Sequence record: LR597660
DNA length: 64,000 nucleotides
Origin: Escherichia phage T4_ev151
Strand: one strand, 5' to 3'
The notes beneath the pieces are model-generated. The model ran no database searches and was not told the DNA's origin. It was given only the letters and a program-made list of their open reading frames with translations. A program made the position numbers and the translations under genes. Positions 15,132-21,720 of the stretch are shown in pieces (within the stretch, counting starts at the first letter, position 1; each line of letters begins with the position of its first letter).

Positions 15132-16226
15132 ATGGCAATTGTTAAAGAAATAACTACTGATTTAATTAAAAAGTCCGGTGAGAAAATTTCAGCCGGACAG
15201 AGCACTAAATCAGAAGTAGTAACTAAAACATACACTGCCCAGTTTCCAACTGGGCGTGCTAGTGGTAATGACACTACAGGGGACTTCCAGGTAACAGATC
15301 TATATAAGAATGGATTATTATTTACTGCATACAATATGTCATCTAGGGATTCTGGAAGTCTTAGAACGATGAGATCTAACTACTCTTCTTCATCTTCGAG
15401 TATTTTACGTACAGCCAGAAACACTATCAGTAGTACAGTATCAAAACTATCAAATGGATTAATATCAAATAATAATTCAGGAACAATAAGTAAAGCTCCT
15501 GTCGCAAACATTCTTTTACCGAGATCTAAATCTGATGTTGACACATCATCACATAGATTTAATGATGTTCAAGAAAGTCTTATCAGCAGAGGCGGAGGTA
15601 CTGCTACTGGTGTGCTAAGTAATGTTGCTTCAACCGCAGTATTTGGGGCACTGGAAAGTATAACACAAGGTATAATGGCTGATAATAATGAACAGATTTA
15701 TACGACAGCCAGAAGTATGTATGGTGGTGCTGAAAATAGAACTAAAGTGTTTACATGGGATTTGACTCCACGTTCAACAGAAGATTTAATGGCTATTATT
15801 AATATCTATCAATATTTTAACTATTTTTCTTATGGTGAAACAGGTAAATCTCAACACACTGCTGAAATAAAGGGGTATTTAGATGATTGGTATCGTTCTA
15901 CGTTAATTGAACCTTTATCTCCGGAAGACGCAGCTAAAAATAAAACACTATTTGAGAAAATGACAGCAAGTTTAACGAACGTTCTTGTAGTTTCAAACCC
16001 GACAGTTTGGATGGTGAAAAACTTTGGTGCAACATCTAAGTTTGATGGAAAAACGGAAATATTTGGTCCATGCCAAATACAGAGCATTAGATTTGATAAA
16101 ACACCTAATGGTAACTTTAACGGATTAGCTATTGCTCCAAACCTCCCTAGTACATTTACTCTCGAGATTACTATGAGAGAAATTATCACGTTAAACCGTG
16201 CTTCTTTATATGCGGGGACTTTTTAA
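15132..16226 (+). CDS. 48: baseplate tail-tube cap gp48
   Basis: 364 aa; T4 order 29-48-54. Confidence 0.85.
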   Translation: MAIVKEITTDLIKKSGEKISAGQSTKSEVVTKTYTAQFPTGRASGNDTTGDFQVTDLYKNGLLFTAYNMSSRDSGSLRTMRSNYSSSSSSILRTARNTISSTVSKLSNGLISNNNSGTISKAPVANILLPRSKSDVDTSSHRFNDVQESLISRGGGTATGVLSNVASTAVFGALESITQGIMADNNEQIYTTARSMYGGAENRTKVFTWDLTPRSTEDLMAIINIYQYFNYFSYGETGKSQHTAEIKGYLDDWYRSTLIEPLSPEDAAKNKTLFEKMTASLTNVLVVSNPTVWMVKNFGATSKFDGKTEIFGPCQIQSIRFDKTPNGNFNGLAIAPNLPSTFTLEITMREIITLNRASLYAGTF

Positions 16227-17191
16227 TGTATTCTTTAGAGGAATTTAATAATCAAGCAATAAACGCAGATTTCCAACGTAATAATATGTTTAGCTGCGTT
16301 TTTGCAACAACTCCATCAACTAAAAGCTCTTCGTTGATAAGTTCAATTAGCAACTTTTCTTATAATAACTTGGGCCTAAATTCAGATTGGTTAGGATTAA
16401 CTCAAGGCGATATTAATCAGGGAATTACCACGCTAATTACAGCTGGCACACAAAAACTGATAAGAAAATCAGGGGTTAGTAAATATCTTATTGGTGCCAT
16501 GAGTCAACGTACAGTTCAAAGTTTATTAGGCTCATTTACAGTTGGTACATATTTAATTGACTTCTTTAACATGGCATATAACTCATCTGGATTGATGATA
16601 TACTCTGTAAAAATGCCAGAGAATAGATTATCCTATGAAACTGACTGGAACTATAATTCTCCTAATATTCGTATAACTGGGAGAGAATTAGACCCTTTGG
16701 TTATTTCATTTAGAATGGATTCAGAAGCTTGTAACTATCGTGCAATGCAAGACTGGGTTAACTCTGTTCAAGACCCAGTAACTGGATTGCGTGCTTTGCC
16801 ACAAGATGTCGAGGCAGATATTCAGGTTAATCTTCATTCTCGCAATGGATTACCTCATACTGCGGTGATGTTCACTGGATGCATTCCAGTGTCAGTGAGC
16901 GCTCCTGAGTTATCATATGATGGAGATAACCAAATAACTACATTTGATGTTACTTTTGCGTATAGAGTGATGCAGGCTGGAGCAGTTGATAGGCAAGCTG
17001 CGCTTGAATGGCTTGAATCTGCTGCTATAAATGGTATTCAAAGCGTTCTTGGAAATAGTGGAGGTGTTACTGGACTATCTAATTCGCTTTCACGACTTAG
17101 TAGATTAGGAGGGACTGCAGGAAGCATTTCAAACATTAATACTATGACAGGGATTGTCAATTCGCAAAGTAAAATATTAGGAGCAATATAA
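16226..17191 (+). CDS. 54: baseplate tail-tube initiator gp54
   Basis: 321 aa; start overlaps gene 48 stop (TAATG). Confidence 0.85.
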   Translation: MYSLEEFNNQAINADFQRNNMFSCVFATTPSTKSSSLISSISNFSYNNLGLNSDWLGLTQGDINQGITTLITAGTQKLIRKSGVSKYLIGAMSQRTVQSLLGSFTVGTYLIDFFNMAYNSSGLMIYSVKMPENRLSYETDWNYNSPNIRITGRELDPLVISFRMDSEACNYRAMQDWVNSVQDPVTGLRALPQDVEADIQVNLHSRNGLPHTAVMFTGCIPVSVSAPELSYDGDNQITTFDVTFAYRVMQAGAVDRQAALEWLESAAINGIQSVLGNSGGVTGLSNSLSRLSRLGGTAGSISNINTMTGIVNSQSKILGAI

Positions 17192-17195
17192 CAAT

Positions 17196-17219
17196 GGGGA
17201 CCTTTCGGTCCCCATATTT
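17196..17219. terminator. stem-loop terminator between convergent genes 54 and the alt-downstream ORF
   Basis: GGGGACC-TTTC-GGTCCCC followed by ATATTTTTATTT. Confidence 0.7.
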
Positions 17220-17510
17220 TTATTTACGGAATGAAATGAAAGCAGAAACTGAAGCAACTAAACTGTCTTCAATATAAACTTCAATTTTTACCGGAGCTTC
17301 TGACTCAAATTTACCTGTTACTACACCCTGAAAAATACTTTCAGTTTGTTCTGGCTTTGAAAAATTTTCAGAAGGAAAAATTCCGAACTTTTTATCTGTT
17401 CCAAAAATTTTAATAAATTCATCGTAAACTGCTTCATTAAAAGCATTATCAGCAGGAATAACGCCTTCAACTACAAGTTCTTGACCCAAAAAGCGCAAAG
17501 AAGATTTCAT
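17220..17510 (-). CDS. hypothetical protein (T4 alt.-3 position)
   Basis: 96 aa; ATG verified; preceded by GAGGA SD supplied by the 54-bp repeat. Confidence 0.65.
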   Translation of the reverse strand: MKSSLRFLGQELVVEGVIPADNAFNEAVYDEFIKIFGTDKKFGIFPSENFSKPEQTESIFQGVVTGKFESEAPVKIEVYIEDSLVASVSAFISFRK

Positions 17511-17517
17511 TTTGTGT

Positions 17518-17571
17518 TCCTCATGTTATGTCAGTAAGACTACTATAACACAACACGAGGGACTTGTAAAC
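17518..17571 (-). promoter_or_regulatory. 54-bp repeat copy A: early promoter (GTTTAC, 18 nt, TGnTATAGT) plus leader and SD
   Basis: Identical to 31151-31204; - strand reads GTTTAC-AAGTCCCTCGTGTTGTGT-TATAGT...GAGGA; the downstream gene ATG is 7 nt past the repeat. Confidence 0.6.
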
Positions 17572-17746
17572 TACATTTTGAACTTTTTAGTACGCGTAAT
17601 AGGCATGCGTCGATTTTATACTGTTTCATTGTTTGAAGAGCAGTATCAAAAACAGCATTAATGACACCAATTGGATTTCCACCCAAGTTTTTAAGCTTAA
17701 CTAATGATAGTTTCTCATTAACACCTATCATTACGATATGCATCAT
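17543..17746 (-). CDS. Alt N-terminal paralogue, distal fragment (T4 alt.-2 position)
   Basis: 67 aa MMHIVMIGVNEKLSLVKLKNLGGNPIGVINAVFDTALQTMKQYKIDACLLRVLKS... aligns with Alt residues ~63-125 (MMHIVPFTLTAKGSIAKLKGLGPSPINYINSVFTVAMQTMRQYKIDACMLRILKS); start overlaps the upstream ORF stop (ATGA). Confidence 0.6.
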   Translation of the reverse strand: MMHIVMIGVNEKLSLVKLKNLGGNPIGVINAVFDTALQTMKQYKIDACLLRVLKSSKCSLQVPRVVL

Positions 17747-17928
17747 TTTGTCGCCTGGTTTAACGTTTTATCTGTATCACCGCCAGAGGTGTATGTACAA
17801 AATCTAAATCCAGGAAGCACGCTTTCTTCGCCGGCTTGAATAGCAAAAATTTGTGGTATTTTATGCTTAGGATTTAAGTTAACAACCGGCGCCGAAGCGC
17901 CGTCAAATAATTCTGTAATAAGTTCCAT
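17743..17928 (-). CDS. Alt N-terminal paralogue, proximal fragment (T4 alt.-1 position)
   Basis: 61 aa MELITELFDGASAPVVNLNPKHKIPQIFAIQAGEESVLPGFRFCTYTSGGDTDK... aligns with Alt residues 1-60. Confidence 0.6.
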   Translation of the reverse strand: MELITELFDGASAPVVNLNPKHKIPQIFAIQAGEESVLPGFRFCTYTSGGDTDKTLNQATK

Positions 17929-17931
17929 GAT

Positions 17932-20019
17932 TTATCCTTGAACGAACTTGTAAGGCATATTTGTAATATCTATGCAAGACGCAATAATTCCAAGAGATGA
18001 TTCTACTTTCTGTTTAACATTTGACGAAACAAATGATGCAAAGTCAACTCTATTTTCTATATAGCCTGTCATTGTAACCAATTCACCAGTTTCCATTAAA
18101 CGGTCTCCGTCATAGATTACCGATTCGGTGAGTTCTTCTGTGGTCATAACTTCAGCTTGAATGAGTTTTGTATTATTAGATGTTGTTCCGTCATTATTAG
18201 AAGCATCAGTTATTTTATTAACTTTGACCATCAATCCACGCGGTAGAATAACTTCAGCTTCAGTTGCTATTCCGAGATTTCCTGGATATACAACATTAAC
18301 TTTATGTGCGCCGTCAATAGCCCATCCTATTTGAACTTTAACGTATTCAGGATTTTCTTTATACGCTCTTATTTCGTTTGGATTAATAGTTATTCCTTCT
18401 TCATTTTTATCAACTGTTAATTCATTGCGAGCTTCTGGTTCTAAAAGACCAATACCAGCATGTGTAATTCCAAAACGTCCAAAAATGATAGGAGTTAAAG
18501 AAGTAGATACAAAATTTCTGAAATAGAATACTTTATTTTTAACTAGTGCTTCGTATATAGGAGCAGTCATACTTTGAGCACGATAAACTGTAATGCCTTC
18601 TGGTATACGATCACCATTTTCAAAAGCATAATCTAAATTAGTTATAGCAGCTTCAATTTCTTTTTCACTCATTACTTCATAACGTTCTGGATCATAACGA
18701 CCCAAAAGAAGATTATTGATGTCAGTATACCCTGAACCACAATACTCTCTAATGCCGCGCTTTTGTGATGGAGTATATTTAGAACCATCACGGGCAATAG
18801 TAATATCAATCATTGGACCTGCACCAATTCCAGAAAAACTATAAATCATTCTTTTGAGGAATTTAGTTTTTGCTGCGTTCCAGGAATTTTTAGTCATTTC
18901 TTCCCAGACTTCATCTGGCTGCCCTTTACGAGTTTTATTATGTTTATCAAGCCAATTATCTTTATATTCTTCAAAGAGTTGATTAACAGCTGCTGCGTAT
19001 TTCTCTAAACATTTTATTGAAGTAGTTGGTTCATTTTTAATTGCATTAAAAATTACTTCTTTAATTTTTTCTGAAACTTCACCGACTTGACTCATTGGAA
19101 AGAATTTATAATCATAGTGAAGTTCATCTGCCGTTCCTTCAGCAATAATTTTTGCTGCCTTTGTTTTAGAAGCTAATGAATTAATTCCAATTTTCATTTC
19201 TTCTGCTTCGGGAATTAAAGGTGCAGTAGCTGGTTTATTAAAATTAGCTGCTGTAGATTCATACTTCTGGAATAATTCACTTTCAAATCTAGAAGATTCC
19301 AATGATTGACTTTGCGCAATTGCTCTACGGGAAATTTTAACTTTAACGATTACAGCTTGGTCAGAACGTTTATCATTTTCTTGTGCAATAGATGCTGCAA
19401 TTGCCTCATTTTTAGTTACTTGAGCTCCAGTATCTTTATTGATGTAAACATCGCCGACTTTCGATTCAACTTTAGTAAAGAGCTCGGTACTAATTTCCGG
19501 AACTCCTGGAATGTCTTCTAGTGATACATTTTTGCGATGTATAAGAATATATGCATACTTTTTATCATAATCCCAGAGTTCCTTAAGAAGGACGTATCTG
19601 CCACCTGAACGGCTACGGATAAGTCTATCAGCAATAACTTGAATTTGTCGAGCTTGACCAGCGGTTTTAGACTTAAGAATACGAAGCATACAAGCATCAA
19701 TTTTATACTGACGCATTGTTTGCATTGCAACAGTAAAAACTGAATTGATATAATTAATTGGGCTTGGACCAAGACCTTTTAATTTAGCAATTGAACCTTT
19801 AGCAGTTAATGTAAAAGGAACAATGTGCATCATTTTATCGCCCATCTTTAAATCGCGATTAGTATCACCTCCAGATGTATAGGTACATAAACGAAAGCCT
19901 GGTTGTTCAATTGCATCATCAACATGAACTGAAAAAATTTGCGGTATTTTCTTCTTTGGATTTAAGTTTGTAATCGGAAGAGTAGTATCTTCGTCAAATA
20001 ATTCTGTAATGAGTTCCAT
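17932..20019 (-). CDS. alt: ADP-ribosyltransferase Alt (virion-packaged)
   Basis: 695 aa; position upstream of gene 30 and the late promoter; the N-terminal 125 aa are shared with the two downstream fragments; function from recalled T4 Alt. Confidence 0.85.
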   Translation of the reverse strand: MELITELFDEDTTLPITNLNPKKKIPQIFSVHVDDAIEQPGFRLCTYTSGGDTNRDLKMGDKMMHIVPFTLTAKGSIAKLKGLGPSPINYINSVFTVAMQTMRQYKIDACMLRILKSKTAGQARQIQVIADRLIRSRSGGRYVLLKELWDYDKKYAYILIHRKNVSLEDIPGVPEISTELFTKVESKVGDVYINKDTGAQVTKNEAIAASIAQENDKRSDQAVIVKVKISRRAIAQSQSLESSRFESELFQKYESTAANFNKPATAPLIPEAEEMKIGINSLASKTKAAKIIAEGTADELHYDYKFFPMSQVGEVSEKIKEVIFNAIKNEPTTSIKCLEKYAAAVNQLFEEYKDNWLDKHNKTRKGQPDEVWEEMTKNSWNAAKTKFLKRMIYSFSGIGAGPMIDITIARDGSKYTPSQKRGIREYCGSGYTDINNLLLGRYDPERYEVMSEKEIEAAITNLDYAFENGDRIPEGITVYRAQSMTAPIYEALVKNKVFYFRNFVSTSLTPIIFGRFGITHAGIGLLEPEARNELTVDKNEEGITINPNEIRAYKENPEYVKVQIGWAIDGAHKVNVVYPGNLGIATEAEVILPRGLMVKVNKITDASNNDGTTSNNTKLIQAEVMTTEELTESVIYDGDRLMETGELVTMTGYIENRVDFASFVSSNVKQKVESSLGIIASCIDITNMPYKFVQG

Positions 20020-20042: not shown

Positions 20043-20050
20043 TATTTATA
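20043..20050 (-). promoter_or_regulatory. late promoter TATAAATA (- strand) upstream of alt
   Basis: TATTTATA on + strand, 23 nt upstream of the alt ATG; SD GAGAGGA. Confidence 0.55.
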
Positions 20051-20055
20051 AAATT

Positions 20056-20073
20056 AAAGGCCCGAAGGCCTTT
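20056..20073 (-). terminator. stem-loop terminator after the ORF at 20072-20260
   Basis: AAAGGCC-CGAA-GGCCTTT overlapping the stop codon, followed on the - strand by a T/A-rich tract. Confidence 0.55.
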
Positions 20074-20260
20074 AATAATCTATTGGTAAGAGAGTACGAT
20101 ATATTTCAAACTTTGGACCTTTTTCATAAGCATCAAAAGTTTCTGTGAATTTATTATAAGCATATGCATCTATAAATTCAATCATGATTTGTGATACAGA
20201 AGTAGAAACATCTCCACCTTCTTTTTGAGCCACGACAATTGTTTCTAAGTAAGCTTTCAT
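20072..20260 (-). CDS. hypothetical protein
   Basis: 62 aa; ATG overlaps the DNA ligase stop (ATGA). Confidence 0.6.
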   Translation of the reverse strand: MKAYLETIVVAQKEGGDVSTSVSQIMIEFIDAYAYNKFTETFDAYEKGPKFEIYRTLLPIDY

Positions 20261-21720
20261 AGACCAGTTACCTCATGAAAATCACCAAATACATCTTCGA
20301 ATGTATTAGCTTTAGTTTTATCTTCACGTAAACGAATCGCAATCGGAAGAAATAATTTAACGTAATCAGTGCGGCCATCAGATTTTAACCAACCGTTGCA
20401 TTCGCACTCTAGAATTTTTCCAATATAATAATTTTGGTTTTCCATAATGCGAGTACGGTCAAGTTCATGTGATTTTACACCGGCTTTATCTTTTAAGCCT
20501 GAACCAGCATTCACCTTAATTTTTCCACACTCTGACTCAAGAATAAATCCACCTGCTTTAGTAGGGTCTTTACGGTGAGGATAAATTCCTACAATTTTTA
20601 AATCAACATCAATTACTTCTTTAAATTTATAGAGATTTTTTGAACGAGCATTTTCCCATAATCCATCGATATTTTTGAGAATAATACCTTCAAGACCTTG
20701 GTCAATATACTTTTTATAAATTACCTTAGCTTCATCTAGGTTATTTACTACTTGGTTTTCAATTAAAATTACTTTATCATAACCTGATGTCATTTGTTCT
20801 AATTTAGAAAAACGGACATCATATTTCAAACGAAATGTAGGAAGACCGTATATTTCTATCAACGGTACATAATCCCAGACCTGAAACTTCATGCATTGTG
20901 CTTCTTTTTCAGAAATTGTTCCCTTTAAAGATTTATTGGCGATGCCATTAGAAGCAGTACGTGATTCAGCTACTTCGGCGAATTCTTTAGCTTTACTATT
21001 TTCAGGATAAGCATCAAAAAGAAAATCTAGGCCTTCTGGCTCCTTTTTAACTTGCTCATGGTATACCAATTCGCCATCAATTAACACACCTTCTGGATGA
21101 ATCTGGCGGGCTTCAGCGGTCATTTTGATTAACTCTTCCTTAAGAAGATCTAATCCTAGGTATTCATTACCAGCTCGTGATAAAAGACGAACATCATCTA
21201 ATTCATCACCTCTGACTTCAGCAAAGCACCGAGCCCCATCAGCTTTTAACTGGGCAAAGGCTGGAAATTTGATATTCTTATTAATGCCTTTTTCATCATA
21301 AGAACTTGCAAGCATTTGAGGTTGTTCAGGAATTAAACCTGGCCAAACTTTGTTTGCAATAGATACTGAAGCACCACATTCAAGGTCTCGCATCATCACT
21401 CGACGCAAAACTTCAACATCATCTTTTTTACCATCGGTGATATATCCAGTTAATTCCTCAATTGCTGCATTTCCAGTCAATTTCCGAGTAGCTAACGTGA
21501 ATTCAATAAAATCAAGCATATCGGTAAGAGTCAACATTCCAAAACTCTGGGTAGCAATACCAGGTTTAGGCCATTTCTTGATATAATACTGTAACCCACG
21601 AGAATAAGTCAGACGATATACTCGTTTAAGCAATTCATTATCTTTATTCTTTTCAAGAATTGCTTGCTTCTGCTTAGTTGAACCAATAGATGCTATTTCG
21701 TTCAGAATTTTAAGAATCAT
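20257..21720 (-). CDS. 30: ATP-dependent DNA ligase
   Basis: 487 aa; sequence matches recalled T4 DNA ligase including the KADG adenylation motif (..FAQLKADGARCF..). Confidence 0.95.
   Translation of the reverse strand: MILKILNEIASIGSTKQKQAILEKNKDNELLKRVYRLTYSRGLQYYIKKWPKPGIATQSFGMLTLTDMLDFIEFTLATRKLTGNAAIEELTGYITDGKKDDVEVLRRVMMRDLECGASVSIANKVWPGLIPEQPQMLASSYDEKGINKNIKFPAFAQLKADGARCFAEVRGDELDDVRLLSRAGNEYLGLDLLKEELIKMTAEARQIHPEGVLIDGELVYHEQVKKEPEGLDFLFDAYPENSKAKEFAEVAESRTASNGIANKSLKGTISEKEAQCMKFQVWDYVPLIEIYGLPTFRLKYDVRFSKLEQMTSGYDKVILIENQVVNNLDEAKVIYKKYIDQGLEGIILKNIDGLWENARSKNLYKFKEVIDVDLKIVGIYPHRKDPTKAGGFILESECGKIKVNAGSGLKDKAGVKSHELDRTRIMENQNYYIGKILECECNGWLKSDGRTDYVKLFLPIAIRLREDKTKANTFEDVFGDFHEVTGL

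Follow-up and report, generated by a model that had tools for sequence, protein, structure and literature searches.

Between the ADP-ribosyltransferase gene alt and the small gene alt.-3 of Escherichia phage T4_ev151 (sequence record LR597660) lie two short open reading frames (ORFs) that resemble the beginning of alt, and the question raised by this locus is whether they encode small proteins of their own or are what is left of a larger gene. The stretch of DNA analysed, called here the window, is 64,000 nucleotides long. The two ORFs occupy positions 17543–17928 on the minus strand: a 61-aa ORF (17743–17928), which starts 3 nt past the stop codon of alt, and a 67-aa ORF (17543–17746), whose start codon overlaps the stop codon of the first in the sequence ATGA. 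They are the alt.-1 and alt.-2 of phage T4, a pair that is already known and that is catalogued in PHROGs as the families phrog_23015 and phrog_15247. The initial annotation, made from the sequence alone, described them as a partial tandem duplication of the alt 5' region that had decayed or been re-purposed into two small proteins, which could compete for or modulate packaging if the Alt N-terminus mediates it. The comparisons described below indicate, with a probability of about 0.88, that 17543–17928 is a decaying relic (pseudogene) of a second, tandem and full-length alt paralogue.

The relationship of the two ORFs to the N-terminus of Alt is clear. The 61-aa ORF shares 36 of 62 residues (58%) with Alt residues 1–62 (BLASTP, E 3e-23), and the 67-aa ORF shares 34 of 55 residues (62%) with Alt residues 63–117 (E 1e-21). 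The pair of consecutive, overlapping ORFs paralogous to the Alt N-terminus is thus confirmed at exactly the coordinates first proposed; the match had been placed at Alt residues ~1–125, of which the N-terminal part holds, while homology ends at residue 117. At the DNA level, 233 of 345 aligned bases (67.5%) match the 5' end of alt up to the deletion junction discussed below, and the global alignment score lies 18.9 standard deviations above that of 200 shuffled sequences, therefore the similarity to alt is not compositional. The last 8 codons of the 61-aa ORF, past a frameshift, and the last 12 of the 67-aa ORF, past the junction, are not homologous to Alt, and they give the small products the stretches peculiar to them, the shifted tail KTLNQATK and the tail SSKCSLQVPRVVL. 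Each ORF is matched over its whole length by its own PHROGs profile (phrog_23015, 1–61 of 61, E 3.9e-45; phrog_15247, 1–67 of 67, E 8.8e-50), and neither has a Pfam hit. On the profile of the Alt-like ADP-ribosyltransferases (phrog_802, 674 positions) the small ORFs cover only positions 2–120. The catalytic domain with the R, S-T-S and E-x-E residues (PF03496, ADPrib_exo_Tox) is absent from the stump, and the corresponding region falls within a deleted segment of 1699 bp.

The origin of this segment is revealed by the close relatives. The window comes from a member of the genus Tequatrovirus (T4-like myoviruses), and the 20 kb around the locus are 96–97% identical to many Escherichia and Shigella T-even phages. 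Searched against GenBank phage records, the alt region of the window matched most close relatives in two segments, whose span exceeds that of the query by ~1.7 kb. Phages RB14, UAB_60, T2, RB51, PP01, phiD1 and Ge15 possess, between alt and alt.-3, an intact gene for a 685-aa “Alt-like ADP-ribosyltransferase”. This second paralogue shows 41% identity to Alt overall and higher identity across the first ~240 residues, and it contains the PF03496 domain, the R, STS and ExE residues being aligned. Over the first ~347 nt of the second paralogue the window stump matches at 96% identity, versus only 67.5% identity to alt, and its 3' end corresponds to the last ~20 nt of the second paralogue, followed by intergenic DNA. 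The paralogues of RB14 (where the gene is named alt.-2), RB51, T2, PP01 and phiD1 occupy the orthologous locus; their first ~347 and last ~20 nt are 93–97% identical to the window stump, but they are intact, encode the ADP-ribosyltransferase domain and are under strong purifying selection, whereas the window lacks the central 1699 bp. By sequence, RB14, T2, PP01 and most other Tequatrovirus records carry an intact and catalytically complete 685-aa paralogue at this locus. The remnant form was found with a junction-straddling query in 90 of the 501 matching phage records, while in the rest the two halves of the query are far apart. Scans of IMG/VR returned two loci by the junction pattern and five by the intact paralogue, too few T4-type contigs for a population analysis, which is based on the GenBank phage records instead.

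The junction itself is well defined. A 9-bp direct repeat, CTAAAAAGT, is present in the intact RB14 gene (2058 nt) at nt 340 and again at nt 2039; a single copy remains in the window, at 17582–17590 on the minus strand, and exactly 1699 bp are gone. Both copies are exact in six of nine intact genes. The length of 1699 bp is not divisible by 3, and the frame of the stump therefore runs across the old stop codon TAG for a further 27 nt. The 12 codons (SKCSLQVPRVVL) that close the 67-aa ORF come from intergenic DNA in which the early promoter of alt.-3 is located. Deletions of this kind, between short direct repeats, are well known in T4 from the classical rII deletion studies. In these, as here, the end points lie in a short direct repeat of which one copy is kept; the rII deletions are laboratory mutants, whereas the one in the window is natural, fixed and found in 90 database records. 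The deletion may have arisen once or repeatedly at this 9-bp repeat. An origin by internal deletion of a full-length paralogue should thus replace both the partial duplication of the initial annotation and the wording of the T4 reference record, which treats alt.-1 and alt.-2 together as a duplicated first part of alt that acquired a stop codon and a new start. No statement of an internal-deletion origin was found in the searchable papers, but the RB14 and RB51 records imply it, since the full-length gene bears the name alt.-2 there.

The split between the two ORFs has an equally simple explanation. A run of four A (17766–17769, minus strand) corresponds to five A in the intact paralogue, and the loss of this one A is what puts the two ORFs in different frames. 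The A5 run is found in all intact genes fitting the test pattern (8 of 9) and the A4 run in 12 of 14 remnants. The 61-aa ORF comprises codons 1–53 of the ancestral paralogue and 8 out-of-frame codons, and ends at the TGA that the ancestral ATGATG contains. From the ancestral Met-Met, where it starts, the 67-aa ORF follows the ancestral frame through codons ~62–116, to which the 12 new out-of-frame codons are added. Alt itself also has the sequence DKMMHIV around the Met-Met. Since the shifted frame stops at the TGA within the ancestral AAA ATG ATG, no further mutation is needed to obtain the ATGA overlap or the “new start codon”, and both are by-products rather than adaptations. The proposal that the copy was interrupted by a frame change and had decayed is therefore well founded, with the lost A and with further lesions in relatives.

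These lesions were followed in 14 remnants read base by base: those of the window, T4, Lutter, FJ1, SYGD1, FL12, CE1, IME537, Pu-Krd-SF7, e11/2, slur14, ESh30 and two IMG/VR contigs. The deletion junction is identical in all 14, and the ORF structure varies among five states. The arrangement of 61 and 67 codons is found in six (the window, T4, Pu-Krd-SF7, e11/2 and the two IMG/VR contigs). In Lutter, FJ1, slur14 and ESh30 a change of codon 6 from GAA to TAA reduces the first ORF to 5 aa and leaves the second at 67 aa, while CE1 and IME537 additionally have a -1 frameshift in a T run, which gives ORFs of 5 and 39 aa. SYGD1 lacks the first frameshift and has a single ORF of 128 aa, and FL12, also lacking the frameshift, has the stop at codon 6. 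The codon 6 stop is thus present in half of the remnants (7 of 14), and an allele-specific search with a 55-nt query found it in 45 database records.

The pattern of substitutions was compared over the shared 348 nt in 23 sequences. Among segregating variants, the intact genes have ~33 synonymous and 2 nonsynonymous changes, versus 21 synonymous and 12 nonsynonymous or stop changes in the remnants. The difference is sharper for private variants, with 10 nonsynonymous or stop to 4 synonymous in the remnants and 1 to 15 in the intact genes (Fisher p = 0.0004). The 10:4 ratio agrees with neutrality, under which 78% would be expected (binomial p 0.52), in line with neutral-looking substitutions and relaxed constraint, in a small sample. 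No fixed difference between remnants and intact genes exists over the 348 nt and most polymorphisms are common to both, which fits recombination among phages.

The N-terminal region of Alt, to part of which the stump is homologous, behaves as a single module. In an exhaustive representative search, residues 1–240 align end to end as one unit in 71 clusters, nearly all of them proteins of 600–710 aa; a narrower homologue search with the same residues had returned only five proteins, and the exhaustive search was used instead. The structure model predicts one compact alpha/beta domain (pLDDT 88.9, pTM 0.84). The stump covers residues 1–116 only, ending after the strand 109–115 in the middle of the module, and is further split at residue 53. 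A sequence search of the PDB gave no solved Alt structure and only weak matches to the CDTa catalytic domain, and Foldseek with the full Alt model gave C3/CDTa/iota-type ADP-ribosyltransferase domains only, with no match for the N-terminal module. The N-terminus of Alt is trimmed by the prohead protease, and the targeting of proteins to the T4 core is still to be resolved (PMC9958956). The 61-aa ORF keeps the conserved MELITELF start, where the protease trims Alt. In time-resolved omics of T4, transcripts of alt.-1 and alt.-2 were detected (class “middle”) whereas the proteins were not (Class_P “NA”), and alt.-3 was detected as both transcript and protein, in the early class (PMC9697503, Table S2). 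In literature searches, no publication came up that assigns a function to alt.-1 or alt.-2.

A sequence of events can be proposed from these comparisons. The ancestor would have carried two complete Alt-type ADP-ribosyltransferase genes in tandem, as RB14, T2, PP01, phiD1 and most Tequatrovirus phages still do. The lineage from which T4 and the window phage received this segment would then have lost 1699 bp by slippage or illegitimate recombination between the two copies of CTAAAAAGT, and with them the entire catalytic domain, the middle region and the second half of the N-terminal module. The deletion was most likely the first event, because SYGD1 carries it alone. An A would afterwards have been lost from the A5 run at codon 54, splitting the stump. 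The frameshift and the nonsense mutation presumably both came after the deletion and were then reshuffled by recombination, because all four combinations of the two occur. Transcription of alt probably still continues into the stump, which would form the 3' part of the message. A T4 late-promoter consensus, TATAAATA, lies upstream of alt (20043–20050, minus strand), where a promoter is annotated in phage Lutter. A transcript covering the remnant likely starts there, as the search of this strand between alt and the remnant showed no terminator-like site. The remnant would thus be passively co-transcribed with alt, with selection at the protein level apparently no longer acting on it and with further lesions accumulating in relatives.

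Several points weigh against calling the locus a pseudogene. The remnants read base by base are 14 of the 90 remnant-type records, and the substitution test is based on few events (14 and 16 private variants) in 23 related, recombining sequences. Of the 14 remnants, 12 retain the complete 67-aa ORF. The window phage and T4 also retain the complete 61-aa ORF, which has a good Shine-Dalgarno sequence (AAGGA), and small peptides could well be produced from these ORFs. The failure of shotgun proteomics to find two very small proteins is weak negative evidence. On the other side, an intact orthologue at the same locus, disabling lesions and relaxed selective constraint (small sample), by which a pseudogene is recognized, are all found here.

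That the fragments are functional small proteins, which enter or bind the scaffolding core, compete with Alt or tune its packaging, or act as decoys in host defence, is improbable. Entry into the core or binding of an Alt partner is suggested by the retention of the Alt N-terminus, and such a role would be helped by the strong ribosome-binding site of the 61-aa ORF directly behind alt on the same presumed late transcript, by translational coupling, which the ATGA overlap would permit, by the preservation of the 67-aa ORF in most remnants and by the unsettled mechanism of core targeting in T4 (PMC9958956). The comparative evidence speaks against a conserved function: the first ORF is down to 5 codons in half of the remnants and the stop responsible is widespread in the databases, the second ORF is cut to 39 aa in two more genomes, the remnant-specific changes are mostly nonsynonymous, and the ATGA overlap and start codon are inherited by-products. 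Moreover, the piece is less than half of one predicted domain, about four fifths of the related phages have no such fragments and only the intact gene, and neither protein was detected in T4 (PMC9697503, Table S2). The suggestion that the copy had been re-purposed into two packaging-modulating proteins accordingly finds no support, given five ORF states and neutral-looking substitutions. A narrower form, restricted to phages such as the window phage and T4 where both ORFs are intact, appears more doubtful still; peptides made late would be recruited to the prohead core or to a partner of Alt, tuning the amount of Alt packaged or injected, or would serve as decoys for an Alt-sensing host defence.

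A duplication that never extended beyond the first ~350 nt of alt, with the full-length genes of RB14 and T2 arising separately, is very unlikely. Such a primary partial duplication agrees with the T4 RefSeq note and with the listing of alt.-1 and alt.-2 among paralogous duplications of adjacent genes by Nolan et al. 2006 (PMC1524935), but the junction analysis contradicts it, and it leaves unexplained why the stump is so much closer to the full-length paralogue than to alt, why it ends with the last nucleotides of that paralogue, why the junction repeat occurs twice in the paralogue and why remnant and intact forms have no fixed difference. A fused 128-aa product might instead be made by programmed -1 ribosomal frameshifting or transcriptional slippage at the A run, since the frame change does fall in a homopolymer and SYGD1 has the fused ORF. 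The site, GAT AAA ACG, has four A's only and lacks an X XXY YYZ heptamer, a -1 shift would place the Lys tRNA on TAA, the stop at codon 6 lies upstream of the site in half of the genomes, and the two-frame arrangement is absent in SYGD1 and FL12. A run of four A's is also too short for efficient slippage of a polymerase. With a non-slippery site and an arrangement that is not conserved, programmed frameshifting was rejected, its probability being close to nil. Single-base homopolymer errors are common in sequencing and assembly, and the split could in principle be such an error; the A4 state is found in 12 independently sequenced genomes including the T4 reference, and this explanation, hardly credible any longer, was rejected as well.

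The neighborhood of the relic is that of T4, with the gene order 30 - alt.1 - alt - alt.-1 - alt.-2 - alt.-3 | 54 - 48. On the plus strand, gp48 (15132–16226) and gp54 (16226–17191) are followed by a putative bidirectional terminator (17194–17215), a hairpin with a 9-bp GC-rich stem and T runs on both sides, located between the convergent genes 54 and alt.-3; a terminator is annotated at this position in several relatives. The other genes are on the minus strand. The intact downstream neighbor alt.-3 (17220–17510) encodes a 96-aa DUF5498 protein and fixes the orthologous position. Its T4-early-type promoter (17542–17571, minus strand; GTTTAC/TTTACA, a 17-nt spacer and TG-n-TATAGT), annotated at the same place in phage Lutter, falls in the tail of the 67-aa ORF that has no homology to Alt; in phages that keep the intact paralogue it is intergenic. 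The 1699-bp deletion ended ~10 nt short of this promoter. The intact upstream paralogue alt (17932–20019, 695 aa) consists of the N-terminal module of ~240 residues and the PF03496 ADP-ribosyltransferase domain (residues 378–627), in which R480, S505, E587 and E589 are invariant in the family. It is preceded by alt.1 (20072–20260, 62 aa; Pfam PF24647, “Phage blade protein”, E 7.5e-29) and the DNA ligase gene 30 (20257–21720).

In T4, alt.-1 (T4p199, 61 aa) and alt.-2 (T4p198, 67 aa) have the same position, lengths, ATGA overlap, junction and A4 run as in the window, with ~98% identical DNA and few point differences, e.g. at residue 17 and N/D at residue 53; the comparison with the T4 region that the initial annotation had proposed thus leads to the same, already annotated pair. 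The two phages differ more in alt itself. The window Alt is near-identical to that of T4 (L004:5455-7503) in residues 1–245 and ~600–695 but only about half identical in residues 245–600, which include the catalytic domain. With both ends near-identical and the middle divergent, the window alt is a mosaic allele, and the window thus combines an RB14-like alt with a T4-like remnant.

Tandem alt paralogues and broken copies recur in T4-like phages, with Alt duplicates in 44RR, RB49, JS98, Bp7 and Ac42 (PMC4177764, PMC1524935). In Acinetobacter phage ZZ1 Alt is split into proteins of 229 and 463 aa and both halves are kept, including the catalytic one, in contrast to the window, which lacks the catalytic half (PMC4177764, PMC1524935). 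Escherichia phage vB_EcoM_KAW1E185 (NC_054922.1; L025:363-2420) has a single alt between alt.1 and alt.-3, a hybrid gene. From residue 1 to ~590 it is of the Alt type, and a crossover near the conserved AEVILPRG motif leads into ~100 final residues of the second-paralogue type. This hybrid apparently arose by unequal recombination between the tandem paralogues. Truncated ORFs with the Alt N-terminus are also seen elsewhere: that of Salmonella phage Melville (P0002, 323 aa) contains the full N-terminal module and no catalytic domain, and P0030, P0061, P0062 and P0075 are further examples, several of them short fragments with unrelated tails. Some such ORFs in public data may be artefacts of contig ends or frameshifts.

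For annotation, pseudogene is a better label for the two ORFs than hypothetical proteins. The significance of the finding is small, as the pair is already in the T4 reference annotation and in PHROGs, and the refinement of its origin is mainly historical. The locus is nevertheless a clear case of turnover in tandem injected ADP-ribosyltransferases, with intact, deleted and hybrid forms among close relatives. Alt has recently been reported to act in an allele-specific manner against the Mokosh type I defence, and the turnover of tandem alt genes fits such an action (bioRxiv 10.1101/2025.11.20.689424).
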